A stretch of DNA of 64,000 nucleotides from an uncultured delta proteobacterium (GTDB taxonomy: Bacteria > Desulfobacterota > Desulfobacteria > Desulfobacterales > B30-G6), in contig CAWGLD010000007.1 of the NCBI GenBank assembly GCA_963823335.1, positions 345,409 to 409,408 of the forward strand, given 5' to 3'. The notes beneath the pieces were generated by a model that saw nothing but the letters and a program-made list of their open reading frames with translations, was not told the origin of the DNA and did no database searches. Numbering within the stretch: the stretch's first letter is position 1; every line of letters starts with the position of its first letter. Of the stretch, positions 21,304-45,852 are shown in pieces. A program made the translations under genes and the position numbers.

Positions 21304-21465
21304 TTTTTTGGAATTCCTTGTAAAATTGGATGCGTGATATTTATTTACACGTTGTTCCTGCTGATTGTCAAGAAAGTCGCACCGGACTTAGCGAAAGATC
21401 CACTAGATGGTTTGAATATTTTAACTGTCAATGATAACAAGAATAGAATTATAGGAACGATTTAT

Positions 21466-23197: not shown

Positions 23198-24673
23198 TCA
23201 CGCCTCCATATGCTCATTCTTCAACGTTTCCAATGCCCTTTCTCGTATCTGATCCAGGGATTGCTGAACATCGGCAGGCAATTTCAGCGGCCGGTGGTTT
23301 TCGAGAATGTCCATGGCCTTACTGACCGCTTTTTGGCCCCATGTTTTTTGCCCCTGGGCCATCCAGGGTTCAAGGGTTTCACGGTTGCAGAGCTGGGGTT
23401 GCCAATGTTCCTGTTTAAAATATTTCATGGTCTGTTCGGTTGAAATAAAGGCGCCCTGGGGACCCACCTGGCGGATCACATCCATGCCGATATGCTCCGG
23501 GTCGATGTCAAAACCGCGAATAACACGCCTCACGTAGCTGATGATCTCCGCATTCATTACAAGTGCCGCCGGAGACCCCACCAGGCCCTGTCCCAGATAT
23601 CCAATGTCATGAATCAGATTGGCACCGTCCAGTCCGGCCATGAGTAAAGAGATAGACCATTCCATGCCGGCCTGCTCATCAGGCACGTGTGCGTCGCTGA
23701 CCCCGGCTGTTCCCCACATGGGAATGCCGTAATAATGATACAGATCCGCGCAGGCCGACAGAGCCAGCCTGTATTCCGGACAACCATATACACATGCAGA
23801 TGTCTTCATATCCAGGGTGGACATACCGAACCCGGAAATGATCGGCGCACCTTTGGCCCTTAACTGATGAAGGACGATGCCACTCAAGGCTTCGGCATTT
23901 CCAACGGTAATGGCACCGGCCAGGGTCACCGGTGCGCTGGCCCCGGACATCATACCGGGTGTATAGTTTACCGGGACCGCATTGTCGGCACAAAAAAAGA
24001 GTTTTTTGATGGCCCCCGATGAGTGCATCAACGGCGTCAGTGGCTCAGCATAATGGATATGAATCGGCTTTTCCCTCAAGACATCTTTTCCGCCAACGAC
24101 AGCCGCAGCCATCTCATTGATGATGGCGATGTCTTTGGTTCCGGCCGCAGTAAAAAAAATGGGCTTTATGGCGTTTTCCAACTGGGTCTTGAAGGAATCG
24201 ATGTACATCAGGTTGGTGGGTGAGTCATATGGCAGGGCATAGGATCCCAAAAAATCGATCTCTTCGAGGGAATCGGCTATCCTGGCGGCATTTGCCACAT
24301 CCGCCAGTCTCGACTCTCTCAACACGCCGGACACCAGGTCATAGGTTTTGATCAAATCCGTCCCCATACCGAAATAGGATTTATTGCCTTCCAGGAGCAT
24401 GGCCTCCTGACCTAAGCGGTTATAGATGGTGATCCGTGAAGGCGCACTGCGGATGCAGTCTTCAACCAGCCAGTTGGGAATCTGGACGATGTTGTCTGGT
24501 TTTATCCGGCAACCGGCATGGGCCATCATATCCAGGGCCTCCGGATGCATCACCTTGACACCCACCGTTTCCAGGAGTTCCAGGGTGGCACAATGAATAT
24601 GTTCGATCTGATCCCGGGTCAGCACCCGATAGACCGGCAGACATTGTGATTTAAAGCCTGTGTTCATTACCAT
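23198..24673 (-). CDS. MttB-superfamily corrinoid methyltransferase, pyrrolysine-free (copy 1)
   Basis: IHCATLELLETVGV, GASAPVTLAG, GNAEALSG, DEQAGME, IRQVGPQG-F. No in-frame stop. Confidence 0.92.
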   Translation of the reverse strand: MVMNTGFKSQCLPVYRVLTRDQIEHIHCATLELLETVGVKVMHPEALDMMAHAGCRIKPDNIVQIPNWLVEDCIRSAPSRITIYNRLGQEAMLLEGNKSYFGMGTDLIKTYDLVSGVLRESRLADVANAARIADSLEEIDFLGSYALPYDSPTNLMYIDSFKTQLENAIKPIFFTAAGTKDIAIINEMAAAVVGGKDVLREKPIHIHYAEPLTPLMHSSGAIKKLFFCADNAVPVNYTPGMMSGASAPVTLAGAITVGNAEALSGIVLHQLRAKGAPIISGFGMSTLDMKTSACVYGCPEYRLALSACADLYHYYGIPMWGTAGVSDAHVPDEQAGMEWSISLLMAGLDGANLIHDIGYLGQGLVGSPAALVMNAEIISYVRRVIRGFDIDPEHIGMDVIRQVGPQGAFISTEQTMKYFKQEHWQPQLCNRETLEPWMAQGQKTWGQKAVSKAMDILENHRPLKLPADVQQSLDQIRERALETLKNEHMEA

Positions 24674-24748: not shown

Positions 24749-26899
24749 TTATGCAAATTTAGGGTTCATCCGTTTGCATGCCCCGCACACATGTATTGTT
24801 TCCGGCGCAACCCCATATGGTTTGACCTGTTTTTCCATATACGAAATGTATCTGCCTGCTCCCAGTTCTTTGCCGCATCCATGACAGTATACCAGGATAT
24901 CCCTGCAGAGGGTGATACCGCAAAGCCTGAGAACACACTGACCGTTTTCATGGGTCATGGTCATGGCGCCGGTGGGGCAGCTGTTGACACAAGCACCGCA
25001 CAGGATGCACCTTCCGGCGGTTAACTCGAAATCGGTCGGCCCCGGAGCCTGGTGATCAAAATAACCGAGACCCAGTGCTTGAAAACCCAATTTTTCATGA
25101 CATGCGTCCACGCATCTGCCGCACTGAATGCACACATCGCACCTGAGGCACCGTAAAGCCTCTGTCCTGGCTGCCTGCGGTGCAAGCGTCAATTCCACCT
25201 GTTCGAAAGTCTTTTTCCTTTTCTCTATATCAAGCAGGGGCAACGATGGTCTGGTTAGCGTTGTTTTCTGAGATGCCGTTGTTTCAAGAAAAGCTGTCTG
25301 TGTCCTGCGGGCCGAAAGATATCGTGTTTTCAGCAAAGGCTGTCCCTGGAAGTATCGATGGACGTTCTCCGCCGCTAGTTTTCCAGCCGCAATGGCCTCG
25401 ATAATGGTGGCCGGACCTGTAACCAAATCGCCGCCTGCAAAAACACCTTTTGCTCCTGTCTGCCCCGTCAAAGGATCCGCGACGATGGTGTTGTGTTCCG
25501 TCCACGTCAGACCATTAAAGGCCGAAAGCCCTTCCCGGTCAGACCACTGCCCTATGGCATGAAGAACAGCATCGGTCTTGAGCTCATGCATGCTCCCCTG
25601 GATGGGGATGGGTCTTTTTCTGCCGTTTTCATCGGCCTCCCCGAGCCTGGCGTCCACACAACAAATACCGGACACCTTGCTCTGGGACCCCGATATCTCC
25701 ACAGGAATCTTCAAAAAGGACACCCGGACACCCTCCTGCTCCGCCTGGATGACATCCTCCTTCAGGGCCGGCATTTCACTCCGGGTCCGTCGGTACAGAA
25801 CCGTAACATCGCTGCTACCCAAACGCAGTGCCGTTCGGGCGGCATCCAGCGCGACATTACCTCCCCCCACAACTGCCACACGAGAACCAATGGAAGGTGC
25901 ATGCCCCAGACCGGCCTGATGTAAATACGTAATGGCATCCATGACCGGTGAAAAATCATTTTCACCTTTTATACCCATTCGCAGCCCTTTGTGGGCTCCC
26001 GTTGCAACATAGAAGGATTCAAACCCTTCCTGTCGCAACGCTTCAACCGTTATGTCCTTTCCCATACGCGTGTTGAAACGAAAGACAACACCCAGTTCTT
26101 GAATCAAAGAAATCTCTCTTTCGAGAACGGACAGGGGCAGCCGGTATCTTGGGATGCCAACACGCATCATCCCGCCGGCCCACGGCAGAGATTCGATGAC
26201 GGTTACACCATAGCCCTTGAGGGATAAATAGTAGGCCGCGCTGAGTCCGGATGGTCCGGCACCCACAATACAGACTTTGTGACCGTTGTCCTGTGCCCTG
26301 GCAGGGTTTTTAAAGCCATCACCCTCAAGGACAATTTTGGATGAAAAGGCTTTGAGGGCCTTGATGGCAACAGGTGTGTCGATGTTTTTCCTCAGGCAGG
26401 CTGTTTCACACGGATGTGTACAGGTCAGGCCGCACACCCATGGGAAAGGGTTGGCTTCCCGAATCAGCGCTATTGCTTCATGATCTCTACCCTGCCCGAT
26501 CAAGGTCACGTAGCTTGCCACATCGATACCGGCTGGGCAGGCACATTGACACGCTGCCGGTGACAAAATTTCGCAATCACCCGTCAGACAGACATGATCC
26601 CTCATATGGGTCTCAAAACAGACACCTTCTGAAAACAGTACCGCTGCAATGGTTTTGCCCAAGAATGCGACCATTTCATTTTGTGAGGATTCAAGATATT
26701 TCCCCAGAGATTCGACCCTGGACAGGTCTTGGGGAAGTGCTTTTCCAAGAGAGATTTTTTCCAGGCTGGCACACAGCGATAAAAGCGCTTTTATTAAATG
26801 AGGGGCGAGTTGTTTCTGTGATAAACAGGTGCAATCCGAGAGTAGTCGGAACACCGGGCATGAAGGACGTTTTCCTTTCTCAACACTTGTAACTTTCAT
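24749..26899 (-). CDS. FAD/NAD(P)-dependent Fe-S oxidoreductase (GltD/SudA/NfnB-like) with extra C-terminal ferredoxin
   Basis: CQCACP, CGLTCTHPCE, VGAGPSG, VGGGNVA, FAGGD, CIQCGRC, CILCGACVNSCP. Confidence 0.9.
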   Translation of the reverse strand: MKVTSVEKGKRPSCPVFRLLSDCTCLSQKQLAPHLIKALLSLCASLEKISLGKALPQDLSRVESLGKYLESSQNEMVAFLGKTIAAVLFSEGVCFETHMRDHVCLTGDCEILSPAACQCACPAGIDVASYVTLIGQGRDHEAIALIREANPFPWVCGLTCTHPCETACLRKNIDTPVAIKALKAFSSKIVLEGDGFKNPARAQDNGHKVCIVGAGPSGLSAAYYLSLKGYGVTVIESLPWAGGMMRVGIPRYRLPLSVLEREISLIQELGVVFRFNTRMGKDITVEALRQEGFESFYVATGAHKGLRMGIKGENDFSPVMDAITYLHQAGLGHAPSIGSRVAVVGGGNVALDAARTALRLGSSDVTVLYRRTRSEMPALKEDVIQAEQEGVRVSFLKIPVEISGSQSKVSGICCVDARLGEADENGRKRPIPIQGSMHELKTDAVLHAIGQWSDREGLSAFNGLTWTEHNTIVADPLTGQTGAKGVFAGGDLVTGPATIIEAIAAGKLAAENVHRYFQGQPLLKTRYLSARRTQTAFLETTASQKTTLTRPSLPLLDIEKRKKTFEQVELTLAPQAARTEALRCLRCDVCIQCGRCVDACHEKLGFQALGLGYFDHQAPGPTDFELTAGRCILCGACVNSCPTGAMTMTHENGQCVLRLCGITLCRDILVYCHGCGKELGAGRYISYMEKQVKPYGVAPETIHVCGACKRMNPKFA

Positions 26900-27014: not shown

Positions 27015-28085
27015 TTAGGCTCTATCCAGATTTTCCTCTATATTCTCGAAATCAAAGCCTTCAGGATACTTGGAATAATACTCATGGTACCATTCCCTTG
27101 CCTCATAAGCCTGGATCAGATGTTCCGCCGGAACACCGAATGGGAGATCTCAGCCGGGGGCAAATGTGAACCCCTGGGTACCGCCTGCCGCAAGACTGAT
27201 CAGGGCATCTTCTCTGGGTGACAGAAGTCCCAGGCCGAGGGCAAGGGTCAACTTCAGATTTCCACCAAACCCTTTACCGTATTTTCTTGCGATATCACGG
27301 ACAAAATTCAGGTTCATCTGTTCATCGATGGCAAATCCGTGGGTACCGACCTTGCAGACATCTTCAATGACCTTTGTGCAGTCACCACAGATGAAGAAGC
27401 TGGAAGTCTTGCCGGCATCATGTATGGCTGTTACGGCTTCCTGGCAGTTGGGTGTCACATATTCCTGAAAAGTCTCAGGTCGAATCTGCGACGCTACCGG
27501 ATCCACGATAGCGATGATATCACACCCCATTTGCGTATAAAACCGGGCAGACTCGGCACAGAGTTTACCGGCATAGGCTATAATGGCATGAGCGAAATCC
27601 TTCTTTTTTTTCAATGCCGTAAAAATACGCACACCGGCCAGATGAGAAGCCAGGGTCAGGGGTCCGGTCACCAGGCCGAGCATGGCGCAGTCCATTTCGT
27701 CGAGTTGCGGTTTGACCTTGGCTGCCGCCTGGAAAATGATCGGCCACCTTCCGGATGTTTTTGTAAACACCCCCAGCCCGAGTTCTTCGGGTGTCAACTT
27801 TTCACAGGGATGGGTCTTCACCGAAGGCACATTGTCTTCCCAGTATTCCAGTTCACAACCAATGGATTCCGCTTCCAGGGAGAGATCGAACAAGAGGGGG
27901 ATGCCATCCGCATGATAGGTTTTGGCGGCATGGACAACTCCCCGGGAAAGGATATCCGCATCCTTGAGATACCTGTCTGCTTTTTCATTGATAAGATAGG
28001 CACAGTTGACACCGGCATACGGAACCCAGGGGGCCTTGTCCGTTTCTTTCCCCCGTGTGGCGTCGATGAGCATCTGTTTGGCCAT
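27015..28085 (-). CDS. MtaA/CmuA (URO-D family) methylcobamide methyltransferase-like selenoprotein, 356 aa, UGA at codon 312
   Basis: URO-D family motifs (DLSLEAESIGC, GPLTLA, DPVAS, FICGD, GGNL). The ORF track stops at FTFAPG-TGA, but the frame continues DLPFGVPAEHL...RA-TAA, matching the family APGC(D/E)LP motif. A hairpin follows the UGA. Confidence 0.85.
27114..27149 (-). promoter_or_regulatory. Bacterial SECIS-like hairpin
   Basis: After the UGA: GATCTCCCATTCGG-TGTTCC-GGC-GGAACA-TCTGATC. The G-led loop is ~20 nt downstream; core at 27121-27135. Confidence 0.7.
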
Positions 28086-28246: not shown

Positions 28247-28996
28247 TTATTTTTCTCGTATAGATCTGAACTGGCAGTGTTTCATCGCGCATTGCAGGCA
28301 TTTACTGCCCACGGGCTTTTGCTGCGCCGAATCACTGTATATGACAAAACCGGATATGGATTTTGCCGGTTGCATGACAAACGCATCATTCAGGTGCACA
28401 CCGGCTGTGTCTTGTCCCAACAGATCGAATATCAGGGTCTGGCTTTCCAGGGCCACGCCATTCAGACCCGGTCCCATCCGACATCCGGAAAAAAGACCCA
28501 TCCGTTGTGCATGCATCTCAATCATGTCATTGCATATCAACCCCATGGCATCCAGCATGGCTGTGCCAACAGCATCCAGCAGCAGGGATTGGTATATGCT
28601 GTTGCGTTTTGCAAGATCCCGGCACATGGTCTCGAGGGCACTGCCCAGGCTGCCGACAAAAACAGCAACATACCGGGCATCACTCTCCCACCTGTCAGGA
28701 AGCATGTCAGCATATGCGCCCCTTGACAAAACGATTCCGTATACTTCTTCAATCATGTCCATCGGAATCGCTCGATAACAAATAACCGCCTGTATCATCC
28801 CGACAGTCTGCCGGATGCCCTGGCATACCTGTTGACGTGTCTCCGGGGTCATGGGATAGTCCGGCCCCCCGAAGTAGCGGGCAACAGCCTCTGGTGACGG
28901 CCTGACATCTTCCGGGTCGACGTCAATTCTCACCGTCGATGAATCACCTGCCCCGAATATATCGGCAGTTATGAGTTTTTTCGGTTTGACAGTCAT
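28247..28996 (-). CDS. Stand-alone MetH activation-domain-like protein
   Basis: LLLDAVG, RMGPG, GVHLNDAFVMQPAKSISG and C-terminal CLQCAMKHCQFR. Confidence 0.8.
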   Translation of the reverse strand: MTVKPKKLITADIFGAGDSSTVRIDVDPEDVRPSPEAVARYFGGPDYPMTPETRQQVCQGIRQTVGMIQAVICYRAIPMDMIEEVYGIVLSRGAYADMLPDRWESDARYVAVFVGSLGSALETMCRDLAKRNSIYQSLLLDAVGTAMLDAMGLICNDMIEMHAQRMGLFSGCRMGPGLNGVALESQTLIFDLLGQDTAGVHLNDAFVMQPAKSISGFVIYSDSAQQKPVGSKCLQCAMKHCQFRSIREK

Positions 28997-29113
28997 TCCA
29001 TAAAAAACCGTTTTACGGTCACCACAGGAGTGTTCAACGACCGAAACACGAAAGATCCGACCATGCTTGAGAAAGGTCGTAATTTGGCTTTAAAAAAGCG
29101 GCGCAGCCGCGTC

Positions 29114-29140
29114 AAATAAAATCGCCCGGCGATTTTATTT
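29114..29140 (-). terminator. Hairpin directly after mtmB-like gene
   Basis: AAATAAAATCGCC-C-GGCGATTTTATTT, perfect inverted repeat with A/T tails. Confidence 0.55.
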
Positions 29141-30522
29141 TAGTAGGGAAACTCAATTCCCATGTCTGCGATTTCATCTTTGATTCTGCGGTACATATCG
29201 TAATGTTCCTGGGTCGGCACCGCTTTGGCGACATCGTAGCATTCATGGTACTCACTCCCGATGGGCGCATCTGCGGCATGGTCCTCGTATTTTGCCAGCA
29301 ATTTCTTGGCAATCGCATTGACTTCGGCCCGGGACAAGCCCTGGCACGCGACAGCATGGCCCACTTCCATGCCGATTCTGGCTTCCAGCGGTGTTGCACG
29401 ATTCTTGTATTTGTTGCGGGTCGAAGCCATCTCCCACAGGTGCCATCCAGTGACCGTCGAGACCATGGCGTGAACCGCGGTTTCCCGAAACAGCATCTCC
29501 GTCATGGGACCGGCATTGGCGAATCCATTGGAAGTATGCAGCAGTTTACTGTTTCTGGCCAGCGCCTGCCCTGCCATGGCGATGGCCCACAGCAACTCCC
29601 GGGTGGTGTTGGAACCGTAATTCAAATGAAATGGAAAGTGCTGATTGAAAACAGCACCGTGAATCACCAGACCGATAAGACTGTAGGCGACCGTGGTCAC
29701 CGCCGTTCCCTCTGAGCCGCCGCACCATCCACCGTAAATCGCCCCGGTCAGGTTCCCGGTATAGCAGCCATACTGGGCATAATGAAGGGAGCGATTGAGA
29801 AGTGTGTCGGCGGTCTTGAACTCGGTCAGGGACCCTACAAGCCGTGCATCTGATTTTTGAACGCCCCACTCCTGGTTTGATACGGCGATTTGACCGCTGT
29901 CGTGCTCCGCGGTCCCCACGGCAACCATAAATGTTCCCGGCCGTCCCAGCAGTCTTGCCGCCAGCTTCTGATTGGTGATGTGCTGGATACAGCCGCTGAT
30001 TTCAGAGGGACCCGAAGATTCGATCAGATGACCAAAGGTCTCTTCCAGGATCGGCCCGCAAATGCCGTCCAGAAGTGGTTCCTTGAGATAGGCCATGCAC
30101 ATGGACTGGTGGTACTGCTCGTCACAGGTGATGTCCGGGCTCATGATACAGAATGGGGGGGCCGTGTCTTCCACCTGCCGGTGTTTCCACAGGACAGCGT
30201 CTTTTCCGGCACCCACCCAATATTGATCATGGGCCATATACAGCGCTTCCCGAATCTCTTCATCGGTGACCTGGATCAGCCGGTGGGAATCGGTATTGTA
30301 ATACCCCACATCCCGGAACAGCTCCCAGGCAGCCTGCCAGATTCTGTCAGCCATGGCATCGTCTGTGGGGCACGGGTTTTCCGGGTCATATTTTATTTCA
30401 TATTTTTTGATAAGTTTTTTCAGGGTCGGTGTAAAGTGCTTGGGAAGAAAATCATCCTCCTCCATAAAAGGACCGGTCTGGGATCGTTCGAGAATCTCCC
30501 AGTGCCTGTAGGCTGTTGTCAT
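29140..30522 (-). CDS. MtmB-family (monomethylamine-type) corrinoid methyltransferase, pyrrolysine-free
   Basis: 460 aa; ERSQTGP, DDAMADRIW, GRPG, AGPMTEML, TPLEARI, ECYD. No amber codon. Confidence 0.88.
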   Translation of the reverse strand: MTTAYRHWEILERSQTGPFMEEDDFLPKHFTPTLKKLIKKYEIKYDPENPCPTDDAMADRIWQAAWELFRDVGYYNTDSHRLIQVTDEEIREALYMAHDQYWVGAGKDAVLWKHRQVEDTAPPFCIMSPDITCDEQYHQSMCMAYLKEPLLDGICGPILEETFGHLIESSGPSEISGCIQHITNQKLAARLLGRPGTFMVAVGTAEHDSGQIAVSNQEWGVQKSDARLVGSLTEFKTADTLLNRSLHYAQYGCYTGNLTGAIYGGWCGGSEGTAVTTVAYSLIGLVIHGAVFNQHFPFHLNYGSNTTRELLWAIAMAGQALARNSKLLHTSNGFANAGPMTEMLFRETAVHAMVSTVTGWHLWEMASTRNKYKNRATPLEARIGMEVGHAVACQGLSRAEVNAIAKKLLAKYEDHAADAPIGSEYHECYDVAKAVPTQEHYDMYRRIKDEIADMGIEFPY

Positions 30523-30599
30523 GTCACTCCTCCTTATCTTTCCTGGCAGTTACTCAGGGTATTCATTCTATGGCTCTTCTTCAATTTCATTGGTAAAAA

Positions 30600-30787
30600 A
30601 GGGTCCGAGGGGTCAAGGGGGTCACGTGTTTGATTACCAGGTATTTGACCATCGTTTGGGTTTCCAATTTTCCAAAACATTTAACGATTGATGGCCCGCC
30701 ACCATTTCACTTGAACCGCGACAGCGAGCGCATTCCCCGTAGCTTGCTGCGAGGTTCTTCAATCCTGGAACCCTTGAATCCTTGAAC
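30600..30787. repeat. Inverted octamer arrays with four-helix-bundle relic and a nested family E element (30711-30762)
   Basis: Minus strand reads KLETQTMVKYLVIKHVTP. The family E copy is 51/52 identical to the reverse complement of 48201-48252. Confidence 0.65.
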
Positions 30788-30797
30788 TTTGATCATC

Positions 30798-31433
30798 TCA
30801 TTTTGAGATGATCAAGTTTGCTAAAAGTTCAGGCGCACTCTTGGCGTCCTTACAGTAAAGGTCGGCACCGATCTGGTCGGCCCAAAGCTGGGAAGTGGGC
30901 GCACCACCGATAACAACCTTATATTGATCCCTTATCCCTTTTGAATTTAAAATCTCTATGATTTCTTTCTGACGTGGCATGGTGGTGGTCATCAGCGATG
31001 AAGCGCCGATGAAATCAGCACCCATGGCCTCGGCCTCCTTGATAAAGGTCAGCGGATCCACGTTGTATCCCAGATCCTTCACCACGAAACCATTGGTTTC
31101 CAGGATGAGCTTGACGATATTTTTGCCGATTTCATGCAGGTCCCCTTTGACCACGCCGATCACGATCTTGCCTTTGACTTCCTGTCCGCCGACCTCGTCC
31201 AGATAGGGCGCCATTACCTCGACCACAGCGGACAAGGCCTCTCCGGCCAGCATGATCTCGGGAAGGAAAATTTCCAGTTTTGAAAACAGGTCCCCCACAT
31301 GTGCCATGGTCCTGGTCATGGCCGCTATCATTTCCAGAGGGTTTGCACCGTCCTTGAGAAGCCTTTCGGCAAGCTCCCGGGCCTCCTCTGCTTCACCGTC
31401 TTCCACAAATTTGCTCAATTCCTCCAACGACAT
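30798..31433 (-). CDS. Corrinoid (B12-binding) protein, MttC/MtmC-like
   Basis: FLPEIMLAG, GDLHEIGKNIV, SSLMTTT, VIGGAP. Start moved to ATG 31433 after AGGAGG. Confidence 0.95.
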   Translation of the reverse strand: MSLEELSKFVEDGEAEEARELAERLLKDGANPLEMIAAMTRTMAHVGDLFSKLEIFLPEIMLAGEALSAVVEVMAPYLDEVGGQEVKGKIVIGVVKGDLHEIGKNIVKLILETNGFVVKDLGYNVDPLTFIKEAEAMGADFIGASSLMTTTMPRQKEIIEILNSKGIRDQYKVVIGGAPTSQLWADQIGADLYCKDAKSAPELLANLIISK

Positions 31434-31639
31434 GTCAGGCCTCCTTGCTATCAGCTCTTTTAGGATAATAATATAGATTGTTATAATAACGCATTTCACC
31501 TTGCCCTGAAGCAAGATGTTGCCGTAAAAAATCAGAAATTCCGGAGAACTAGATGAACATCGAATCCCGTCACGGCGGGAAACGTTCAGCATCCAACGTC
31601 GAATACGACAGGTCTCCGCATTTTGTACGGCTTCCTAAG

Positions 31640-31690
31640 GTTGTATATACAACTTCTGTGTCTATAAAATAGGATTTTGCTTTTTGTCAA
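31640..31690 (-). promoter_or_regulatory. Promoter with HutC-type operator for the methyltransferase operon
   Basis: Perfect palindrome GTTGTATATACAAC (31640-31653) just downstream of a minus-strand TTGACA (31690-31685) and a TATAGA-like -10. Confidence 0.8.
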
Positions 31691-31712
31691 GGCATAACAT
31701 GGCACTACGATG

Positions 31713-32459
31713 TTATGGGGTCATGTTTTCCTGTTTAAAGAAATCGGCTGGGTCGAACTGGGGCGAGAAGGTATCCCGGAAAGCCATCTCACCGCGCATG
31801 TAATACTCCACATAGGTAACCGGATCGTCAAATGAATAGATCGTCCGCTTGATATGGAACACAGGATAACCCGGTTTTACACCAAAGATGGGGGCGGTCT
31901 CTTCTGAAAGAACGATCGCCTCCATACTCTGGCTGATCCTGGTAAGCTGCAGTTTGTATTTATTGATCAGAATGCTGTGAATGGATTCGTTTTTGAGATC
32001 CTCCCAGAGAATACCGGCACAGATATCAGGCCGTAGGTACCGTATTTCGTAACGCACCGGCTTTTGATCGAAATACCACAGACGGCTGATAAGAATCAAC
32101 TGCTCCCCGGTTTCCAGCTGTTTTGAAACATCGGCCGGAGGGTCTACCACCTGTGCCTTTTGAACATCCGTTGTCAGAACCACGTTCAGATCGTCAGCCC
32201 ACTTCTGAAACGGTCTGACCCGGAAAAATCCGGTGGTGTAATGCTTCTTCTTCACGAAGGTACCCTTGCCCGGCACGCGCTCAACAAACCCTTCCCTCTC
32301 TATGGCATCGATGGCTTTTCTGGCCGTCATGCGGCTGACACCAAAGGTTTCCGCCAGCCTGTTTTCCGAAGGCACAACATCCAAAAAATTTCGTGCCTTG
32401 ATGCCTTTGATGACATACTCCTTTATCTTTTCGTATTTCGGAATCTTTTTTTGCATCAT
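31713..32459 (-). CDS. hutC: GntR/HutC-family regulator (wHTH + UTRA)
   Basis: PSENRLAETFGVSRMTARKA...GKGTFV plus UTRA domain. Divergent from hutU. Confidence 0.85.
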   Translation of the reverse strand: MMQKKIPKYEKIKEYVIKGIKARNFLDVVPSENRLAETFGVSRMTARKAIDAIEREGFVERVPGKGTFVKKKHYTTGFFRVRPFQKWADDLNVVLTTDVQKAQVVDPPADVSKQLETGEQLILISRLWYFDQKPVRYEIRYLRPDICAGILWEDLKNESIHSILINKYKLQLTRISQSMEAIVLSEETAPIFGVKPGYPVFHIKRTIYSFDDPVTYVEYYMRGEMAFRDTFSPQFDPADFFKQENMTP

Positions 32460-32487
32460 ACATCCCCGTTTCACGGTCTGAAAACCC

Positions 32488-32597
32488 TGTATATACATCT
32501 GGCACACTATAGCCCCACCCGTTTGGATTGTCGAGAGCAAATTCCGCTTGACAAGTCCGGGAACGATGGTCATAACTACTCTTTGATTGTATATACA
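32488..32597. promoter_or_regulatory. Two HutC-type boxes and hutU promoter
   Basis: TGTATATACA at 32488-32497 and 32588-32597; TTGACA(32548)-17bp-CATAAC promoter between them. Confidence 0.8.
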
Positions 32598-32654
32598 GGT
32601 CTGGCTCGTCTCCGCCTGGCTTTATAGAACCTTTCAGGGTGCAAAGGAGGTCCC

Positions 32655-34688
32655 GTGACAACCCATCCCCTTGCTGGTGATACCATGATGATCGAACCGG
32701 ACCAAAATCTCCCCGAACTGCCTGAGTTTGAAAGAGATATTCGCCGGGCCCCGGACCGCGGCTTTCGTCTGACACCCCAACAGGCTGAAATATCGCTGAA
32801 AAATGCCCTGCGCTATATTCCCGTAAAATGGCACGAAACCCTGGCATCCGAATTTCTGAATGAGTTGATGACACGTGGGAGGATCTATGGTTACCGGTAT
32901 AGACCCGCAGGGCCCATCAAGGCCAGGCCGGTTCATTCCTACACAGGCAGATGTCTTGCCGGAAAAGCCTTCCAGGTGATGATCGACAACAACCTTGATT
33001 TTGACGTCGCCCTCTATCCTTATGAACTGGTGACCTATGGAGAAACCGGGTCTGTCTGCCAGAACTGGATGCAGTATCGCCTGATAAAAAAATATCTGGA
33101 AGTACTCACCGAGGACCAGACTCTGGTGGTGGCATCCGGTCATCCCCTGGGGCTTTTTCAATCAAGACCGACCAACCCCCGGGTCATCATTACCAACGGA
33201 TTGATGGTTGGCAGATATGACAACCTGGATGATTGGGAAATTGCCGCCCAGATGGGAGTGGCAAGTTACGGCCAGATGACGGCTGGAGGATGGATGTATA
33301 TCGGTCCCCAGGGTATTGTGCATGGGACCTACAATACACTCCTGAACGCAGGTAGAATAAGATTCGGTCTGAGCAAGGAAGCCAATCTTGCCGGACGACT
33401 GTTTGTCTCTTCAGGCCTGGGGGGCATGAGCGGCGCTCAACCAAAAGCCGCAGAGATCGCCGGAGCCGTATCCATTATCGCCGAGGTTGATGGCTCCAGG
33501 ATACTGACCCGGCACCAGCAGGGCTGGGTAAAACATGTCTCTGACGATCTGGAAGAAACCTTTGCCCTGGCGGCTCAGGCCACTCAGAAGGGGGAACCGC
33601 TCTCCATCGCTTTTGCCGGGAACATCGTCGATCTGCTGGAGTACGCGGTGGACCACAACATAAAAATCGACCTGCTTTCGGATCAGACGTCATGCCATGT
33701 GGCCTATACCGGCGGGTACTGCCCCCAGGGCATCACCTTTGAAGAAAGAACCCGGCTCCTGGCAGAAAACAGAGGGACATTCTGTAAGCTTGTGGATAAA
33801 AGCCTCCGTCGCCACTTTGAATTGATCAAGATTCTCACGTCCAGGGGTGTCTATTTTTTTGATTACGGCAATGCGTTTCTAAAAGCGGTTTTCGACGCAG
33901 GCGTAACCGAAATTTCCAACAATGGCCTCGACGAAAAGGACGGGTTCATCTTTCCATCCTACTTTGAGGACATCATGGGACCCCATATTTTTGATTTCGG
34001 ATACGGCCCGTTCCGCTGGGTCTGTTTGAGCGGTGATCATAATGACCTGGTAAAGACCGACAAGGCAGCCATGGACTGCATCGATCCCCTTCGCAGGTAT
34101 CAGGACAGGGACAACTGGACCTGGATCAGGGATGCGGAAAAGTACCATCTCGTAGTGGGAACCCAGGCCAGGATCCTGTATCAGGACGCGGAAGGCAGAA
34201 TCAGGATCGCACTGAAATTCAACGAGATGGTAAGAAAGGGAGACGTGGGCCCCATAATGATCGGCCGGGATCACCACGATCCCGGCGGGACGGATTCACC
34301 CTTCCGGGAAACAGCCAATATAAATGATGGCAGCAATGTGATGGCCGACATGGCCACCCACTGTTTTGGTGGAAACTGCGCCAGGGGTATGTCCATGGTC
34401 GCTCTGCACAACGGTGGCGGGACAGGGATAGGAAATGCCATAAACGGCGGGTTTGGCCTGGTGCTGGACGGCAGTCAGAGAGTGGACGACACCATCCGGT
34501 CCGCTATTTCCTGGGATGTCATGGGCGGTGTGGCCAGACGGAACTGGGCCCGCAATACCAATGCCATGGAGGTCTGCCGAACCTTCAATGAGGCGAACAA
34601 GGGTGTGGGTCATGTCACCATTCCCTATCTGCCGGAAGAAAGCCTGGTTAAGGATATCGTGTCCAACGCTTTTAAGAAAAGGTCCTGA
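32655..34688 (+). CDS. hutU: Urocanate hydratase, long form, canonical
   Basis: YGQMTAGGWMYIGPQGIVHGT, GLGGMSGAQP, SDQTSCH, GRDHHD, HNGGG. GTG start after AAGGAGG. Confidence 0.95.
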   Translation: MTTHPLAGDTMMIEPDQNLPELPEFERDIRRAPDRGFRLTPQQAEISLKNALRYIPVKWHETLASEFLNELMTRGRIYGYRYRPAGPIKARPVHSYTGRCLAGKAFQVMIDNNLDFDVALYPYELVTYGETGSVCQNWMQYRLIKKYLEVLTEDQTLVVASGHPLGLFQSRPTNPRVIITNGLMVGRYDNLDDWEIAAQMGVASYGQMTAGGWMYIGPQGIVHGTYNTLLNAGRIRFGLSKEANLAGRLFVSSGLGGMSGAQPKAAEIAGAVSIIAEVDGSRILTRHQQGWVKHVSDDLEETFALAAQATQKGEPLSIAFAGNIVDLLEYAVDHNIKIDLLSDQTSCHVAYTGGYCPQGITFEERTRLLAENRGTFCKLVDKSLRRHFELIKILTSRGVYFFDYGNAFLKAVFDAGVTEISNNGLDEKDGFIFPSYFEDIMGPHIFDFGYGPFRWVCLSGDHNDLVKTDKAAMDCIDPLRRYQDRDNWTWIRDAEKYHLVVGTQARILYQDAEGRIRIALKFNEMVRKGDVGPIMIGRDHHDPGGTDSPFRETANINDGSNVMADMATHCFGGNCARGMSMVALHNGGGTGIGNAINGGFGLVLDGSQRVDDTIRSAISWDVMGGVARRNWARNTNAMEVCRTFNEANKGVGHVTIPYLPEESLVKDIVSNAFKKRS

Positions 34689-34689
34689 A

Positions 34690-36255
34690 ATGCAATCCAT
34701 TGTTATCGACAAGGAAAATTTGACCATTGAGGATGTGGTGGCCATCGCCCGAAAAGGTGTGCGGGTCGATGCCTCCAGCCAGGGCGTGCTGCGGGTCGAA
34801 AAAGCCCGTGAGCTGATCGCCAAATGGGTCAGTGAAAAAAAAGTGATCTATGGAATCACCACCGGGTTTGGCGCCTTGTGCAATGTTCCCATTTCGGAAT
34901 CCGACACCCGGTTGCTGCAGAATAAAATCATCATGAGCCACGCCTCGGGCGTGGGGTCACCCCTTCCCGAAGATGTTGTTCGGGCTGTAATGGCCGTCCG
35001 GCTGCATGACCTGTTCATGGGATACTCCGGCTGTTCAATCACGACCCTGCGGTACTTGATGGCCTTTCTCAACCAGGGGCTGACACCGGTCGTGCCTGAA
35101 AAGGGATCGGTGGGATCCAGCGGAGACCTGGCACCCATGGCTCACCTGGGTCTGGTTCTGTTAGGAAAAGGCGAGGCTTTTTATAAGGGCGAACGCCTCA
35201 GCGGTGCCAGGGCACTGGAAAAGATCGGACTTTCCCCCATCAGCCTTGCAGCCGGGGAAGGTCTGGCCCTTATCAACGGTACCCAGGTAATGACCGGCAT
35301 CGCCACCCTGGTGGTTCACGATGCCATCCGCCTGGCAAAAATGGCTGACATCGCCTGCGCCATGAGCCTGGAAGTGCTCATGGGAAGCAATTCTGAATTC
35401 GACCCGCGAATTCATCAGATACGACCTCATCCGGGGCAGATTGCGTCAGCCGAAAATATGCTGCGACTGACCAGTGAAAGTGAAATCATTCTCTCCCACG
35501 AAGGATGCGCCCGTGTTCAGGATGCCTATACCCTGCGATGTTCGCCCCAGATTCACGGTGCCAGTAAGGATGCCGTCGTACATGCTCAAAATGTTGTGAA
35601 GATTGAAATCAATGCATCCACCACCAACCCGTTGATCTTCACCGACACCCAGGAGATCCGCCTGGGAGGAAATTTTCACGGCCAGCCCATCGCCATGGCA
35701 GCCGATTACCTCTCCATGGGGATTGCCGAATTAGGGAATGTGTCCGAACGTCGCATCGAAAGGCTGGTCAACCCGCAATTGAGCGAACTGCCCGCCTTTC
35801 TGGTAAAAAACGGCGGACTCAATTCAGGATTCATGATAGCCCAGTACACGGCCGCCGCCCTGGTTTCCGAAAACAAAGTGCTGGCACATCCAGCTTGTGT
35901 GGACTCGATTCCCACTTCTGCGAACAAGGAAGACCATGTCAGCATGGGCACCATCGCTATTCGACAGTGCCGGGAAATTCTGGATAATGTAGAGCATGTT
36001 CTTGCCGTGGAGATGCTGTGCGCTGCTCAGGCCTATGATCTCCTGAATGAAAAGAACAAAATGATGGGAGGCAGGGGCACTCGGGTAGCCCACCAGGTAA
36101 TTCGAGAAACAATTTCCTATCTTGAAGAAGACCGGGAGCTGTTCATAGATATCGAAAAGATGGTGGCCCTGATCCGCTCAGGTAAAATAATACACGCAGT
36201 GGAAAAGGCTGTGGGTAAGCTCGATCTGGTCAGCTTTGATAAACAGAGCTGCTGA
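34690..36255 (+). CDS. hutH: Histidine ammonia-lyase, canonical
   Basis: YGITTGFG, SHASGVG, MIO triad SSG, QDAYTLRC, GGNFHGQP, EDHVSMG. Start moved to ATG 34690. Confidence 0.93.
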   Translation: MQSIVIDKENLTIEDVVAIARKGVRVDASSQGVLRVEKARELIAKWVSEKKVIYGITTGFGALCNVPISESDTRLLQNKIIMSHASGVGSPLPEDVVRAVMAVRLHDLFMGYSGCSITTLRYLMAFLNQGLTPVVPEKGSVGSSGDLAPMAHLGLVLLGKGEAFYKGERLSGARALEKIGLSPISLAAGEGLALINGTQVMTGIATLVVHDAIRLAKMADIACAMSLEVLMGSNSEFDPRIHQIRPHPGQIASAENMLRLTSESEIILSHEGCARVQDAYTLRCSPQIHGASKDAVVHAQNVVKIEINASTTNPLIFTDTQEIRLGGNFHGQPIAMAADYLSMGIAELGNVSERRIERLVNPQLSELPAFLVKNGGLNSGFMIAQYTAAALVSENKVLAHPACVDSIPTSANKEDHVSMGTIAIRQCREILDNVEHVLAVEMLCAAQAYDLLNEKNKMMGGRGTRVAHQVIRETISYLEEDRELFIDIEKMVALIRSGKIIHAVEKAVGKLDLVSFDKQSC

Positions 36256-36341: not shown

Positions 36342-36833
36342 ATGAATGTTGTATTTGTTGAACTTGATCGGTGCATTGCCTGCTTGAGTTGTGAAAAGGC
36401 ATGTCTGTTTCAACAGGCAGCCAGAAACACAGAGGCAAGCCCGAATATCTTTGTTCGCGTGGACCTGGACCGACGCCGGATTTATGCCGGCACATGCCTG
36501 CAGTGTGAAACCGCTCTCTGCCTGGAAGTATGCCCGATCAAAGCCATAACACGAGATCCGGAAACGTCGGCCGTTATCGTCGATCAGAAGATTTGTCTCG
36601 GGTGTGGTATGTGCGTATCGGCCTGCCCTTTTGGATACATGTACCTGGAAGACTCCTGCCAAAAGGCAACCAAATGCGACCTGTGCGGCGGTACGCCGAA
36701 GTGCGTTCAGATGTGCATGGCCAGGGCCTTACATTTCGGCAGCATCAATTCTCTTGCCGAACGCAAACGTAAACAGACCGATTTGCGCCTGAGTCTTAGG
36801 GCCGTCCCAATCCATACGGGTGAAGAAAAATGA
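36342..36833 (+). CDS. 4Fe-4S dicluster electron-transfer subunit (DmsB/HydN-like)
   Basis: CIACLSCEKAC, CLQCETALCLEVCP, CLGCGMCVSACP, KCDLC. Confidence 0.92.
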   Translation: MNVVFVELDRCIACLSCEKACLFQQAARNTEASPNIFVRVDLDRRRIYAGTCLQCETALCLEVCPIKAITRDPETSAVIVDQKICLGCGMCVSACPFGYMYLEDSCQKATKCDLCGGTPKCVQMCMARALHFGSINSLAERKRKQTDLRLSLRAVPIHTGEEK

Positions 36834-38890
36834 CGGGCAGGACCTTTGTTGAAAACGCGGTCGTAAAAACCCTGTGCCGCATGTGCAGCAACCGCTGCAG
36901 CATCGATGTACACGTCCAGGATGGCCGTATGGTTGAAATCACACCCGGGCAGGGAAACCCCTGCAACCAGGGCAGGATGTGCCCCCGGGGAGGTGCTGCG
37001 CTGGATATGTTTTATCACCCCGACCGTATCCGCACACCCTTGAAGAGACTTGACGACGGCTCATTTGTGAAAATCAGCCGCGAAACAGCCATTGCTGAAA
37101 TTGCCGAGAAGATGATGCAGATTAAGCATCGCTATGGTGCCCGGTCCATGGGGGTATGGAAAGGCGAGGCGATCGGTTTCCTTCAGCAGGAGGAGTATGC
37201 CCGCAGGTTTGCCCACGCATTCGGCACACCCAATTATTTTTCCAACGATTCTGCCTGTTACAATGGCCGATTTCTGGGGCACATGCTGGTAAACGGTTTC
37301 TGGAATCCCTTTTCCTACTATGCCAAGGCGGACCTGATTCTGATTTTCGGCACCAACCCACCTGTGTGCCACCCGCCTTTCATGGCCGAATTTGCCGATG
37401 CCAAGGCAAACGGTGCCAATCTGGTGGTGATCGATCCGAGACTGAATCCCATTGCCTGCTACGCCGATGTTTTTGCCCAGCCCCTGCCGGGCACCGATGG
37501 TGCCATAGCCTGGGGTCTGATTCGTTATATTGTCAAGGCCGGTGAATATGATCACGAGCTGATGGATCGCTACAGCATCGGATTTGAGGAAGTAGTCGCC
37601 TACGCGGAAAAATTCAGCCCTGATTATGTCGAAGAACAAACCGGTGTCTATGCCGATGTTGTGGTCAAAATCGCTCAACTGATTGTTGAGAACCGTCCCA
37701 AGATCAGTTTTTATATGGGTGCCGGTCTGGAGCACCACGACAACGGCGTCGACAACATCCGTGCCCTGGTGATCCTGTCCTGCATTACGGGTGCCTTTGA
37801 TATGGATTGCGGGCTTTACTGGCCCGACGACATGCCCAGGAACGCCTTGACTCTGTATGACGAACTGCCTCTGGAAAAGGAAAAACCCATCGGTGCCGAC
37901 CGCTTCCCGGTGCTTTACGAGCTTCGCAAGGAGTGCCATTCCATGACCGCCATGGATTATATGCTCGGCAAGGGCGAGTATCCGTTGAAGGGACTCATCG
38001 TCACCGCCGCCAATCCAGCCGTCACCAATCCCAACACCCGCAAGGTGGAAGCGGCCCTGGGATCTCTGGACCTCCTGGTGGTCAATGACCTGTTTCTGAC
38101 GAAGACCGCCCGGCTGGCACATTATATCCTGCCCGCCGCCTCCTTTTTGGAACGTTCCGAAATCCACATCGACCCTAAATATCAACGTGTCTATCTCACC
38201 AGCAAGGTGGCGGAAATTCCGGGAATAAAAGACGAATACATGCTCTGGCACGACCTGGCCCATGTCCTGGGCTTTGGTGAGCGCTACTTCCCGTGGGAAA
38301 ACGAGACCCAGGTCAACCAGTTTATACTGGAGCCTTCCAATATCCGGCTCGAACAGCTGCAGGCCCATCCGGAAGGGATTCAGTATAAACCACTGACGTT
38401 CCAGAAACATCTCTCGCGACCCCTGCCGACAGCCTCAGGAAAAATCGAACTGGCTTCCTCTTACTTAAAAAAGCTCGGTTTTTCAGCAATCCCCGAATAC
38501 GTGCCGCCCTATCACCTGCGCGAGAAGTCAGAGGACTACCCTTTCATTCTCACCACAGGTGCACGCAAGACCCTGTTGTATCACTCCAGACATCAGAACT
38601 TAGAGCATTTCCGGAAGATACATCCCAACGCGCGGGTGGAAATTCACCCCGACGATGCTGCAGCGCTGGAAATCAGCGACGGAAACCCGGTTCGAATCGT
38701 TTCAAGTATCGGAGAACTGGTGGTGGAGGCAAACATCGTGCACAAAAACGAGCTTCTCCGGGGTGTTATAGAGATGTATCACGCCTGGGAAGATTGGCGC
38801 ATCAATTTCACCACTTTCGACAGTGTCAACGATCCCATCAGCGGATTCCCCCTCCTGAAGGGTGTACCTGTACGGTTGGAAAAAATATGA
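36830..38890 (+). CDS. Mo/W-bisPGD oxidoreductase catalytic subunit, cytoplasmic (copy 1)
   Basis: CRMCSNRC...CPRG, NDSAC (putative Cys ligand), ILPAASFLE, VEIHPDDAAAL. No Tat signal. Confidence 0.9.
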   Translation: MTGRTFVENAVVKTLCRMCSNRCSIDVHVQDGRMVEITPGQGNPCNQGRMCPRGGAALDMFYHPDRIRTPLKRLDDGSFVKISRETAIAEIAEKMMQIKHRYGARSMGVWKGEAIGFLQQEEYARRFAHAFGTPNYFSNDSACYNGRFLGHMLVNGFWNPFSYYAKADLILIFGTNPPVCHPPFMAEFADAKANGANLVVIDPRLNPIACYADVFAQPLPGTDGAIAWGLIRYIVKAGEYDHELMDRYSIGFEEVVAYAEKFSPDYVEEQTGVYADVVVKIAQLIVENRPKISFYMGAGLEHHDNGVDNIRALVILSCITGAFDMDCGLYWPDDMPRNALTLYDELPLEKEKPIGADRFPVLYELRKECHSMTAMDYMLGKGEYPLKGLIVTAANPAVTNPNTRKVEAALGSLDLLVVNDLFLTKTARLAHYILPAASFLERSEIHIDPKYQRVYLTSKVAEIPGIKDEYMLWHDLAHVLGFGERYFPWENETQVNQFILEPSNIRLEQLQAHPEGIQYKPLTFQKHLSRPLPTASGKIELASSYLKKLGFSAIPEYVPPYHLREKSEDYPFILTTGARKTLLYHSRHQNLEHFRKIHPNARVEIHPDDAAALEISDGNPVRIVSSIGELVVEANIVHKNELLRGVIEMYHAWEDWRINFTTFDSVNDPISGFPLLKGVPVRLEKI

Positions 38891-40896
38891 AAACAGCCAT
38901 GGTTATTTTTCAACCTTCGGGCAGGCGGGGACAGGTGCCCCTGGGGATTTCCATCGTGGAAGCATCCCGGCGTCTGGGCGTGGATATCGAAGCTCCCTGC
39001 GGTGGAAAGCAGATCTGTGGCAAATGCAAGATCCGCATCGAACAGGGCTCGTTCCAGAAACTGAACATCGAATCAACCTGTCTGCACGCCGGTCCCTGGC
39101 AGGCCGGGGAAGAAAACTATATCTCACTTGAAGAAAAAGAAATGGGCTATCGTATGGGTTGTGTGGCCACCGTGGAAGGGGACCTGCTGGTTTTCGTTCC
39201 GGAAGCGGCAAGGGCCGGCAAGCAGGTGGTAAGCAAAGCCCCAAGACCCCTTGATATAAAGCTTAACCCTGCTGTGAAACAGTACCCTGTCGAACTGGTG
39301 CCGCCCTCTCTCAAAGATCCTGCCGGAGATTTTGAAAGAGTCTGTGCCGCCCTGGACAAACAGCACGGTCTCAAATCCCTTAGCATCGACCTATCCGTGC
39401 TGCGTGGTCTCCATGACATCCTGGAGGCGGGTCAATGGAAGGCCACTGTCTCGGTCTGGATGGATAAGGAAATCATCCATGTCCAGTCCGGAACAGGATC
39501 AGGAATATTCGGACTGGCCATCGACGTCGGCACCACCACCGTGGCCGCCTATCTGTGTGATCTGGCTTCCGGTCAGGTGATAGACACACTTTCCATGATG
39601 AATCCGCAGGTCAAGTACGGTGAGGACGTGGTCTCCCGGATCTCTTTTCACATGGAAAACCCCGACGGCTTGAAACGCATGAGTGCCGATATGGTGGCAG
39701 GTCTGAACAGCCTGGTGGAACAGGCATTGTCCCGGGAATATAGCCTGTCTTCACCAAATGGAACTGATCCCGTCAAAGATCAGGTCATTCGCATTCAGCC
39801 TGAGAATATTCTGGATGTGAGCATTGCCGGTAACACGGCCATGCACCACATTCTACTGCAACTGAACCCGGAACCTCTGGGTGTCATCCCTTTCACTCCT
39901 TCGGTACACCACAGTCTTGACATCAAAGCCCATGAATTAGGCCTGAAAGTCAATCCTGCGGCCCACATTTTCATTCTACCCAATGAAGCCGGATTTGTGG
40001 GTGGCGACAACGTGGGTGTCATTCTGGCAGAGGAACCACACCGTCAGGACCAGATTCAGCTGATTATCGACATCGGTACCAACGGCGAGCTGGTGCTGGG
40101 AAATAAAGACCGCCTGATCTGCTCATCCTGTGCCACAGGACCGGCCCTGGAAGGCGCCCAGATCGAATTCGGCATGCGGGCGGCCCCAGGAGCCATCGAA
40201 CGGGTAGCCATCGATCCTGAAACCCACGATGTGGACTTCAAAGTCATCGGCAGAGATCCCTGGCGAAGCTACTCCACGCCCAAGGACATGAAAACCAAGG
40301 GTATCTGCGGGTCCGGCATCCTGGATGCCATCGCCCAGCTGTTTCTGGCCGGTATCGTGGATAAAAGCGGCGCTTTCAGCAAGCATCAATTTTCGAATCG
40401 TTTTCGAACACACCCCGAAACCGGTATGAAGTCATTTGTATTGGCCTGGGCGGAAGAAACCAGTATTGAAAAGGATATCGTCGTGACACAACAGGATGTC
40501 CGGCAGATTCAGCTGGCCAAAGCATCCATTTATACCGGATGCAAACTCATGATGAGAAAACTGGGCGTCGACAGTGTGGACAGCGTCAAGATAGCCGGCG
40601 CTTTTGGATCCCACATTGACTGCAGACTTGCGCTGGTTATCGGCATGTTCCCGGATTGTGCCCTGGATAAAATCGTTTCCGTGGGCAATGCCGCCGGGGA
40701 CGGGTGCAGGATAGCGCTGCTGAACCGGGACAAGCGGGTTGAAGCCGACTGGATTGCCGACAATGTTCAGTATATGGAGCTGACCCTGGAGGAAAACTTT
40801 CAATGGCAGCTCATGGAGGCCATTCACCTGCCCCACATGACCGATACCTTTGATCATCTAGTGGGTGTACTTCCCGAGCCGGCACCAAAAAAATGA
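38887..40896 (+). CDS. ASKHA-domain corrinoid reductive activator (RamA/RACo-like) with N-terminal 2Fe-2S
   Basis: CGGKQICGKC, AIDVGTTT, DIGTNGE, GPALEG, GICGSG, AGAFG, VGNAA. ATGA-coupled to the Mo enzyme. Confidence 0.92.
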   Translation: MKTAMVIFQPSGRRGQVPLGISIVEASRRLGVDIEAPCGGKQICGKCKIRIEQGSFQKLNIESTCLHAGPWQAGEENYISLEEKEMGYRMGCVATVEGDLLVFVPEAARAGKQVVSKAPRPLDIKLNPAVKQYPVELVPPSLKDPAGDFERVCAALDKQHGLKSLSIDLSVLRGLHDILEAGQWKATVSVWMDKEIIHVQSGTGSGIFGLAIDVGTTTVAAYLCDLASGQVIDTLSMMNPQVKYGEDVVSRISFHMENPDGLKRMSADMVAGLNSLVEQALSREYSLSSPNGTDPVKDQVIRIQPENILDVSIAGNTAMHHILLQLNPEPLGVIPFTPSVHHSLDIKAHELGLKVNPAAHIFILPNEAGFVGGDNVGVILAEEPHRQDQIQLIIDIGTNGELVLGNKDRLICSSCATGPALEGAQIEFGMRAAPGAIERVAIDPETHDVDFKVIGRDPWRSYSTPKDMKTKGICGSGILDAIAQLFLAGIVDKSGAFSKHQFSNRFRTHPETGMKSFVLAWAEETSIEKDIVVTQQDVRQIQLAKASIYTGCKLMMRKLGVDSVDSVKIAGAFGSHIDCRLALVIGMFPDCALDKIVSVGNAAGDGCRIALLNRDKRVEADWIADNVQYMELTLEENFQWQLMEAIHLPHMTDTFDHLVGVLPEPAPKK

Positions 40897-45845: not shown

Positions 45846-45852
45846 TCTTTTC

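Follow-up and report, generated by a model that had tools for sequence, protein, structure and literature searches.

We investigated a 64,000-nucleotide stretch of contig CAWGLD010000007.1 from an uncultured member of the Desulfobacterales (hereafter, the window), in which the gene of a GntR-type regulator (31713-32459, minus strand) lies between two divergent gene sets, one led by the histidine utilisation genes hutU and hutH and the other encoding a corrinoid methyltransferase system with a homologue of the methyltransferase MtmB. Three copies of the 10-bp word TGTATATACA surround the regulator gene, and they are very probably operators of this regulator, which we predict from sequence comparisons to be an autoregulated repressor whose regulon joins hutU/hutH to the corrinoid methyltransferase system. 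The original prediction had presented the shared site as direct regulatory evidence that the methyl-transfer genes belong to the histidine-derivative regulon; the operator shared with hutU is supported comparatively, while the word "direct" does not stand, as the support is comparative and in silico, and from it we infer binding, repression and the use of the predicted promoters as real start sites.

A motif scan of the window placed exact copies of TGTATATACA at 31642-31651, 32488-32497 (operator O_R, no strand) and 32588-32597 (operator O_U, no strand), and no further exact copy was found in a scan of the whole window. The first copy is the core of a perfect 14-bp palindrome, GTTGTATATACAAC, at 31640-31653 (operator O_C, no strand), which bears out the extended palindrome reported earlier, and the coordinates of the other two, in the spacer between the regulator gene and hutU, agree with the reported distance of exactly 100 bp. 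This distance was rejected as a designed feature, since paired sites in the divergent spacer are 114-215 bp apart in seven relatives. With up to one mismatch allowed, the window held 5 matches versus 0.48 expected, a number reached in 0 of 100 shuffles. Across the genome (4,367,180 bp, 48.8% GC), TGTATATACA occurred exactly 4 times versus 4.8 expected from base composition, and thus without genome-wide enrichment, and its reversed control word occurred 3 times; matches with up to one mismatch numbered 78 in 4.37 Mb (about 1 per 56 kb, or ~0.7% per 400 bp). The near-expected exact count and the three reversed words would fit functionless AT-rich palindromes that arose by chance, but three of the four exact copies in the genome fall within 960 bp around the regulator gene, for which the chance is ~2e-10 per given kilobase and ~2e-6 genome-wide, and all three follow promoter-like hexamers and are conserved across families; we give chance a practically negligible probability.

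All three sites stand 7-11 bp downstream of sigma-70-like promoter matches, a geometry in which the operators would cover approximately +1 to +16. The predicted promoter of the corrinoid/MtmB unit (31661-31690, minus strand) consists of TTGACA at 31685-31690, an 18-bp spacer and TATAGA at 31661-31666, with 7 bp from the -10 to the 14-mer and 9 bp to the 10-mer, so that O_C would occupy about +1 to +14. This promoter was read from the sequence by consensus, as the promoter scan omitted the match, whose -10 lacks the final T; it nevertheless agrees with the earlier claim of a promoter just upstream of 31640, and its -35 hexamer is kept in relatives, 8 of 10 close ones having TTGACA 33 bp before the 10-mer. 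The regulator gene's own predicted promoter (32506-32534, minus strand; TCGACA-17-TATAGT, 10/12 consensus matches in the promoter scan) ends 8 bp before O_R, and that of the hutU operon (32548-32576, plus strand) combines TTGACA at 32548-32553 and, after 17 bp, CATAAC at 32571-32576, 11 bp before O_U. On the hutU side, TTGACA was located 29-39 bp upstream of the site at 13/13 sites.

Based on this arrangement, we propose that a repressor dimer on the sites at about +1 to +16 would block initiation at three promoters, namely those of the regulator gene itself, of a hutU-hutH-ferredoxin-molybdenum (Mo) oxidoreductase-RACo (reductive activator of corrinoid proteins) unit, and of the corrinoid/MtmB unit, which follows immediately after the regulator gene and shares its strand. 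Binding of a small-molecule effector to the regulator's UTRA domain would release the repressor, and histidine-type catabolism and corrinoid-dependent demethylation would be switched on together. O_C might instead lack a promoter of its own and act as a roadblock or attenuator for transcripts reading through from the regulator gene into the corrinoid gene. The shared strand, the weak -10 (TATAGA) and a scan of the window that found no terminator-like site between the regulator and corrinoid genes are in keeping with such read-through, but 37 of 40 distinct orthologous promoters have a TTGACA 30-37 bp before the 10-mer, although this hexamer was not a selection criterion, and these include four (L052, L054, L071 and L103) that have no regulator gene upstream, which makes the read-through explanation very improbable.

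The regulator is a 248-aa protein of the HutC subfamily that pairs a GntR winged-helix domain (PF00392, 52.6 bits vs a cut-off of 27, residues 9-69) with a UTRA effector domain of the chorismate-lyase fold (PF07702, 100.1 bits vs 23.8, residues 93-224), and it is presumed to be a repressor. HutC (TIGR02018) was the best of 9 NCBIfam families matching it, and because the score of 121 bits is below the curated cut-off of 220, the protein is filed, on its sequence, in the HutC subfamily and not as HutC proper. Among solved structures, NagR/YvoA (E 3e-16) and DasR (E 4e-13) are closest to it. When the regulator was aligned to NagR/YvoA, Arg48 and Gly69 were conserved and Arg38 was replaced by Asn; Arg38 of NagR contacts the guanine at -5 of its operator (PMC4333415). 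The operator in the window carries T at the position of this contacted guanine, beside the Arg38-to-Asn change in the putative binder, and its 14-bp frame is that of the idealised NagR dre palindrome GTGGTCTAGACCAC (PMC4333415).

The regulator gene adjoins hutU/hutH, with a TGTA-N2-TACA-type operator at their promoter. The earlier statement that HutC binds TGTA-N2-TACA and responds to urocanate is true of the Pseudomonas protein, which binds this motif and is released by urocanate (PMC12977541); for the regulator studied here, the labels "HutC" and "urocanate-responsive" are assumptions of the analysis. By analogy with HutC, we consider that its effector may well be urocanate-like, most likely urocanate itself or a near relative of it among the imidazole products of the pathway, though we stop a little short of calling this probable.

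We found orthologues of the regulator in 15 of 60 related genomes, comprising 10 of 14 genomes of the same family (76-91% identity) and five from other families of the order (48-53%). A site with up to one mismatch was present upstream of the regulator gene in 15/15 of these loci. Nine of the 10 same-family loci have such a site past the 3' end of the gene as well, and the contig of the tenth breaks off 99 bp past the match. In all six long same-family loci, the downstream site was followed by corrinoid and MtmB genes, with hutU/hutH divergent. The more distant orthologues have other neighbours: in genome G016 the site precedes hutU-ftcD-hutI-cyclodeaminase-hutH, a canonical hut locus; in G032 the same motif is found at hutU and, in two copies downstream of the regulator gene, before an ABC transporter-ftcD-hutI-cyclodeaminase operon; and in G049 a polar-amino-acid ABC transporter follows the downstream site. 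Judging from these neighbourhoods, the same motif serves ordinary histidine utilisation in the distant orthologues. A tree of 37 regulator sequences, which leaves out the fragmentary L060 row, had a basal polytomy and a very distant outgroup (branch 3.8), and since its base is a polytomy, any ordering of hut-first versus methyltransferase-first was dropped.

Conservation was also assessed from the side of MtmB, for which a homologue search gave 80 loci kept of 86 (71-97% identity) from Desulfobacterales, Desulfobulbaceae and Spirochaetes genome bins and from Desulfocicer vacuolatum DSM 3385; some of these loci are on the same contigs as regulator-orthologue loci, and the two samples overlap to this extent. 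We counted the 69 loci with a corrinoid gene and at least 150 bp of upstream sequence, scoring a site as a match with at most one mismatch within 400 bp. The site was detected at 39 of these 69 orthologous promoters, including all 27 with an adjacent regulator gene, and this is not the absence from orthologous promoters that the original prediction had named as refuting it. Among the 12 loci with a site but no regulator in view, seven have less than 600 bp of upstream sequence.

The two gene sets are not always neighbours, and the sites were found at both when they are apart. In 11 Desulfobulbaceae-like loci, the regulator gene lies between MttB-RACo and corrinoid-MtmB-activation-like-ferredoxin-Mo oxidoreductase genes, and no hutU or hutH was found within 6 kb. 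All five such genomes examined carry a 677-aa urocanase orthologue (69-75% identity), located 64-90 kb away or on another contig in four and ~7.5 kb beyond the locus in one, and in 5/5 it is preceded by exact sites in the spacer it shares with a histidine ammonia-lyase (HAL) family gene. Each of the five genomes has one regulator match at E<=1e-20 and a total of 4-9 exact TGTATATACA copies vs 0-3 of the reversed control. Similarly, in all four genomes where the corrinoid promoter has a site and no regulator gene is next to it, an orthologue is encoded elsewhere (59-63% identity) with its own exact site, adjoining hutU in two, RACo in one (Desulfocicer vacuolatum DSM 3385) and ferredoxin/Mo oxidoreductase genes in one. 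Five site-less genomes yielded one orthologue, one paralogue of only 29% identity and, in three, no match at the threshold; the gene of the single orthologue is next to hutU, a short way outside the fetched locus on its upstream side. At the sequence level, this linkage-independent pattern of sites and regulators is what a trans-acting regulon predicts.

The same comparisons bear on a different reading of the operators, in which they are real but the regulator is dedicated to methylated-amine demethylation (by the corrinoid protein, the MtmB and MttB homologues, RACo and the ferredoxin/Mo oxidoreductase), its effector is the methylated substrate or first product, and hutU/hutH are accessories in some lineages. 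The 11 Desulfobulbaceae-like loci, where only methyltransferase-type neighbours occur near the regulator, the corrinoid/MtmB link in all 27 adjacent cases, the sub-cut-off HutC score and the polytomy at the base of the tree, which gives no support for hut-first, would all suit this alternative. However, hutU carries the exact site in 5/5 of those genomes, the G016 and G032 orthologues sit in purely canonical hut loci without methyltransferase genes, and HutC is the best-scoring named family. We regard a dedicated demethylation regulator as unlikely, though a possibility of some weight.

Several observations weigh against a single regulon that joins hutU/hutH to the methyltransferase genes. The site is missing from 30 of the 69 corrinoid/MtmB promoters (Spirochaetes and part of the Desulfobacterales), all 30 of which also lack an adjacent regulator gene, and in G017 a nearby corrinoid/MtmB unit lacks the site and is accompanied by an FCD-type GntR gene of its own. 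As the sites in relatives were picked by motif match, their internal invariance is circular, and it is their frequency, position and link to the regulator that count. The regulator scores only 121.1 bits on HutC TIGR02018, where the equivalog cut-off is 220. Within the window, a second histidine-type set carries no TGTATATACA upstream (48485-55175), even with up to 2 mismatches, and the regulon therefore misses part of the histidine pathway here. A weak promoter-like match (GTGAAA-18-TATATT, 31499-31470) between O_C and the corrinoid gene could bypass the operator, and direct control may reach no further than the corrinoid and MtmB genes, owing to a terminator-like hairpin behind the latter.

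The 10-mer core is, in addition, generic for regulators of the HutC subfamily and common to paralogues. The genome's fourth exact TGTATATACA (G000:C6:71348-71357), 29 bp after a TTGACA, fronts a transketolase-like/GntR-UTRA/transaldolase operon whose regulator, a paralogue, is 28% identical to ours, with alanine dehydrogenase, two aminotransferase and alanine racemase genes next in line, and a HAL-GntR/UTRA-MttB-MttB cluster in G063 also carries the 10-mer. Paralogue binding or cross-talk may therefore occur at the sites. In its strongest form, the 31640 site would be bound by one or more other HutC-subfamily paralogues, and the shared 10-mer would then be no sign of co-regulation with hutU. 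Operons in G000 and G063 that combine the 10-mer with their own distant GntR/UTRA genes, and the 8 candidate stretches that scored in G000 in the initial orthologue search, lend themselves to this explanation; yet the site was found in 27/27 adjacent cases, an orthologue is encoded by 4/4 genomes with unlinked sites vs 1/5 without, and the 5 + 4 genomes searched each gave one match at E<=1e-20. We therefore hold binding by paralogues instead of the adjacent regulator to be highly unlikely.

The G063 cluster (L140, G063:C11:360573-370644), with an exact TGTATATACA before the HAL-family lyase gene and another before the second MttB gene and with a distant regulator paralogue, again brings a histidase-type lyase together with corrinoid methyltransferases. 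This cluster and a Peripla_BP_6 binding-protein gene, also in G063, were the only related-looking cases among 16 extra exact sites in five related genomes; the others were rejected as regulon members, being mostly beside Usp, ClpB-like, TPR, hydrolase and sigma-54 activator genes. A further locus, L123 (G064:C12:2379-7349), contains a second urocanase-like match (53% identity) with 16 in-frame stops and three exact 10-mers nearby, which may reflect a decayed copy or poor assembly.

On the plus strand, O_U precedes the gene of a long-form urocanase-family protein (32655-34688, 677 aa) with three urocanase Pfam domains and 434.9 bits on the hutU model TIGR01228 (cut-off 375), followed by genes for a histidine ammonia-lyase family protein (34690-36255; hutH TIGR01225, 668 bits vs a cut-off of 539) and, by Pfam, a 4Fe-4S ferredoxin (36342-36833) and a cytoplasmic molybdopterin oxidoreductase (36830-38890). 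The ferredoxin and Mo oxidoreductase genes accompany hutU/hutH or the MtmB unit in relatives. The last gene on this side encodes a RACo-type protein with three RACo Pfam domains (38887-40896); its start was inferred from tblastn alignments, in which residue 31 of the listed open reading frame is the first to be aligned. Because this corrinoid activator ends the hutU-side operon, the two gene sets are tied to each other independently of the operator.

On the minus strand, the first gene after O_C encodes a corrinoid (B12-binding) protein (30798-31433; Pfam/NCBIfam), and the second encodes the MtmB-family homologue (29140-30522), which scored 292 bits on Pfam MtmB over model positions 4-450 of 450 and matched no family in an NCBIfam search. 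Its reading frame runs uninterrupted through 460 aa without an in-frame UAG, and it is thus a non-pyrrolysine homologue; the MttB homologue likewise has no in-frame stop encoding pyrrolysine. Then come, from Pfam matches, a Met_synt_B12-like protein (28247-28996), a URO-D/MtaA-like protein (27150-28085), a Pyr_redox/Fe-S protein (an Fe-S flavoprotein, 24749-26899) and an MTTB-family protein (23198-24673), an order that confirms the corrinoid protein-mtmB-activation domain-MtaA-oxidoreductase-mttB series given earlier. If the TGA at 27150-27152 is read as selenocysteine, the MtaA-like frame gains 44 codons (...APG-U-DLPFG...) and extends to 27015. Residue 311 is also where the tblastn matches to this protein end in relatives, which suggests that the position of the TGA is conserved; the MtaA/URO-D-like family has a zinc-ligand cysteine near it. 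A B12-binding radical SAM gene (21289-22944, plus strand) is convergent with the MttB homologue and occupies the same place in L021 (82% identity).

The six minus-strand genes are a putative operon. A terminator-like GC-rich hairpin and T-run (29098-29110, minus strand; GCGGCTGCGCCGC then TTTTTT), which is a consensus match only, follows the MtmB stop by 30 bp, and with this hairpin in place, direct control by the 31640 site would be secure only for the first two genes; co-transcription beyond them is putative, and gene content after MtmB varies among relatives. A second terminator-like hairpin and T-run (29006-29020, minus strand) also lies between the MtmB homologue and the next gene. Contigs of four estuary RNA libraries cover parts of both gene sets at 95-100% identity; being contigs, they carry no strand or level information and show neither transcription nor starts, and gaps in their coverage prove nothing. 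In two of these RNA-library runs, summed contig depth was 115-137 in the corrinoid-MtmB intergenic bin (30242-30875) vs 1.5-25 elsewhere, and contigs in the same two runs join ~28239 to ~30768, with the MtmB and activation-like genes left out in between; both features may stem from variation among strains or from a small transcript of high abundance.

A long 5' leader of 206 nt (31434-31639, minus strand) separates O_C from the corrinoid start codon, with a predicted fold of -57.9 kcal/mol, a value obtained without a shuffle control. The distance from operator to start is 28-41 bp in four close relatives and 338 bp in L038. The leader has no second copy in the genome or the fetched loci and is unique to this genome, and it was consequently rejected as a repeated or mobile element. 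Rfam returned no family at gathering score for the whole window and, for 31350-32750, only a meaningless long non-coding RNA match (E 0.61); a riboswitch or other known RNA was rejected, in the leader and elsewhere, because Rfam gave no family.

The second histidine-type set extends over 43520-60549, with ftcD, hutI and a second hutH and hutU within 48485-55175. Its minus strand holds a second Mo oxidoreductase gene, an MttB homologue and a divergent FCD-type GntR gene, and its plus strand holds genes for a cyclodeaminase, ftcD, hutI, the second hutH and hutU, a third MttB homologue and a polar-amino-acid ABC transporter. The second HutU scored 630 bits on the hutU model and 649 bits on that of S-methyl-thiourocanate hydratase, below the cut-off of the latter. 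Coverage of hutI, hutG or ftcD by the regulon core, a trait of HutC, was found in the G016 and G032 loci and not in the window.

These features can be compared with known systems. As with HutC of Pseudomonas and enterobacteria, a GntR + UTRA protein is paired with divergent hutU/hutH, and a TGTA-N2-TACA operator overlaps the promoter; release by urocanate is a feature of the Pseudomonas protein (PMC12977541). Unlike HutC, the regulator scores below the equivalog cut-off and its host belongs to the Desulfobacterales, whereas the published survey reported HutC orthologues from alpha-, beta- and gammaproteobacteria only, with regulons listed there as hut genes and transporters and no methyltransferases (PMC5343134). 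In contrast, the predicted regulon here adds the corrinoid protein, the MtmB/MttB homologues, RACo and the Mo oxidoreductase and omits the hutI/ftcD set of the window. NagR/YvoA and DasR share the 14-bp palindrome frame of the dre site as well as Arg48 and Gly69, but their half-site is TGGT vs TTGT here, Arg38 is Asn in our regulator, and an amino-sugar pathway takes the place of the hut and methyl-transfer genes. The MtmB-family, MttB-family, cognate-type corrinoid, MtaA-like and RACo proteins resemble components of the MtmBC, MttBC, MtgBC and MtqBC systems, and the homologues here differ from pyrrolysine MtmB/MttB in having no pyrrolysine-encoding in-frame stop. MtqB of a methanogen, which acts on tetramethylammonium and choline, is reported as the single non-pyrrolysine MtmB homologue with a demonstrated function (PMC13044021). 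Taken together, operators and repressors of this kind are known, and what the regulon contains is new.

One role that would fit this content is the breakdown of a methylated form of histidine (hercynine/ergothioneine or ring- or N-alpha-methylhistidine, for example) by an anaerobic route that has yet to be described, although we put it forward as a tentative suggestion that is less likely than the operators themselves. In such a route, the non-pyrrolysine MtmB/MttB homologues would move methyl groups onto the corrinoid protein, RACo would maintain the corrinoid in its active state, a sulfur or oxygen substituent may fall to the Mo oxidoreductase, and the histidine-type product would then pass through HutH/HutU, with one HutC-like repressor switching the route on. 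The most useful lead from the regulon is that the substrate of the MtmB/MttB homologues may well be a methylated histidine derivative. A literature search found no paper linking such methyltransferases to hut genes, hercynine, ergothioneine or methylhistidine, subscription journals and supplements being outside its scope, and a preprint on mlp gene clusters (PMC10418091) was set aside as it deals with selenium-linked clusters in Firmicutes and has no bearing on this locus.

Overall, in dozens of sulfate-reducer genomes the predicted, conserved operator connects a methyltransferase system with hutU/hutH, also where the genes are unlinked, and it would extend HutC-type regulation to a lineage and to target genes beyond those in the published regulon survey (PMC5343134). 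A cultured carrier is at hand in Desulfocicer vacuolatum DSM 3385, which has the regulator gene next to RACo and, ahead of its corrinoid-MtmB-MtaA-MttB genes, an exact site. The bacterial non-pyrrolysine MtmB homologues are without an assigned substrate, and the operator link to hutU/hutH narrows the search for it to histidine-related methylated compounds; if the methylated-histidine route is true, these compounds would be the first substrate class of the bacterial homologues, revealed by an operator.

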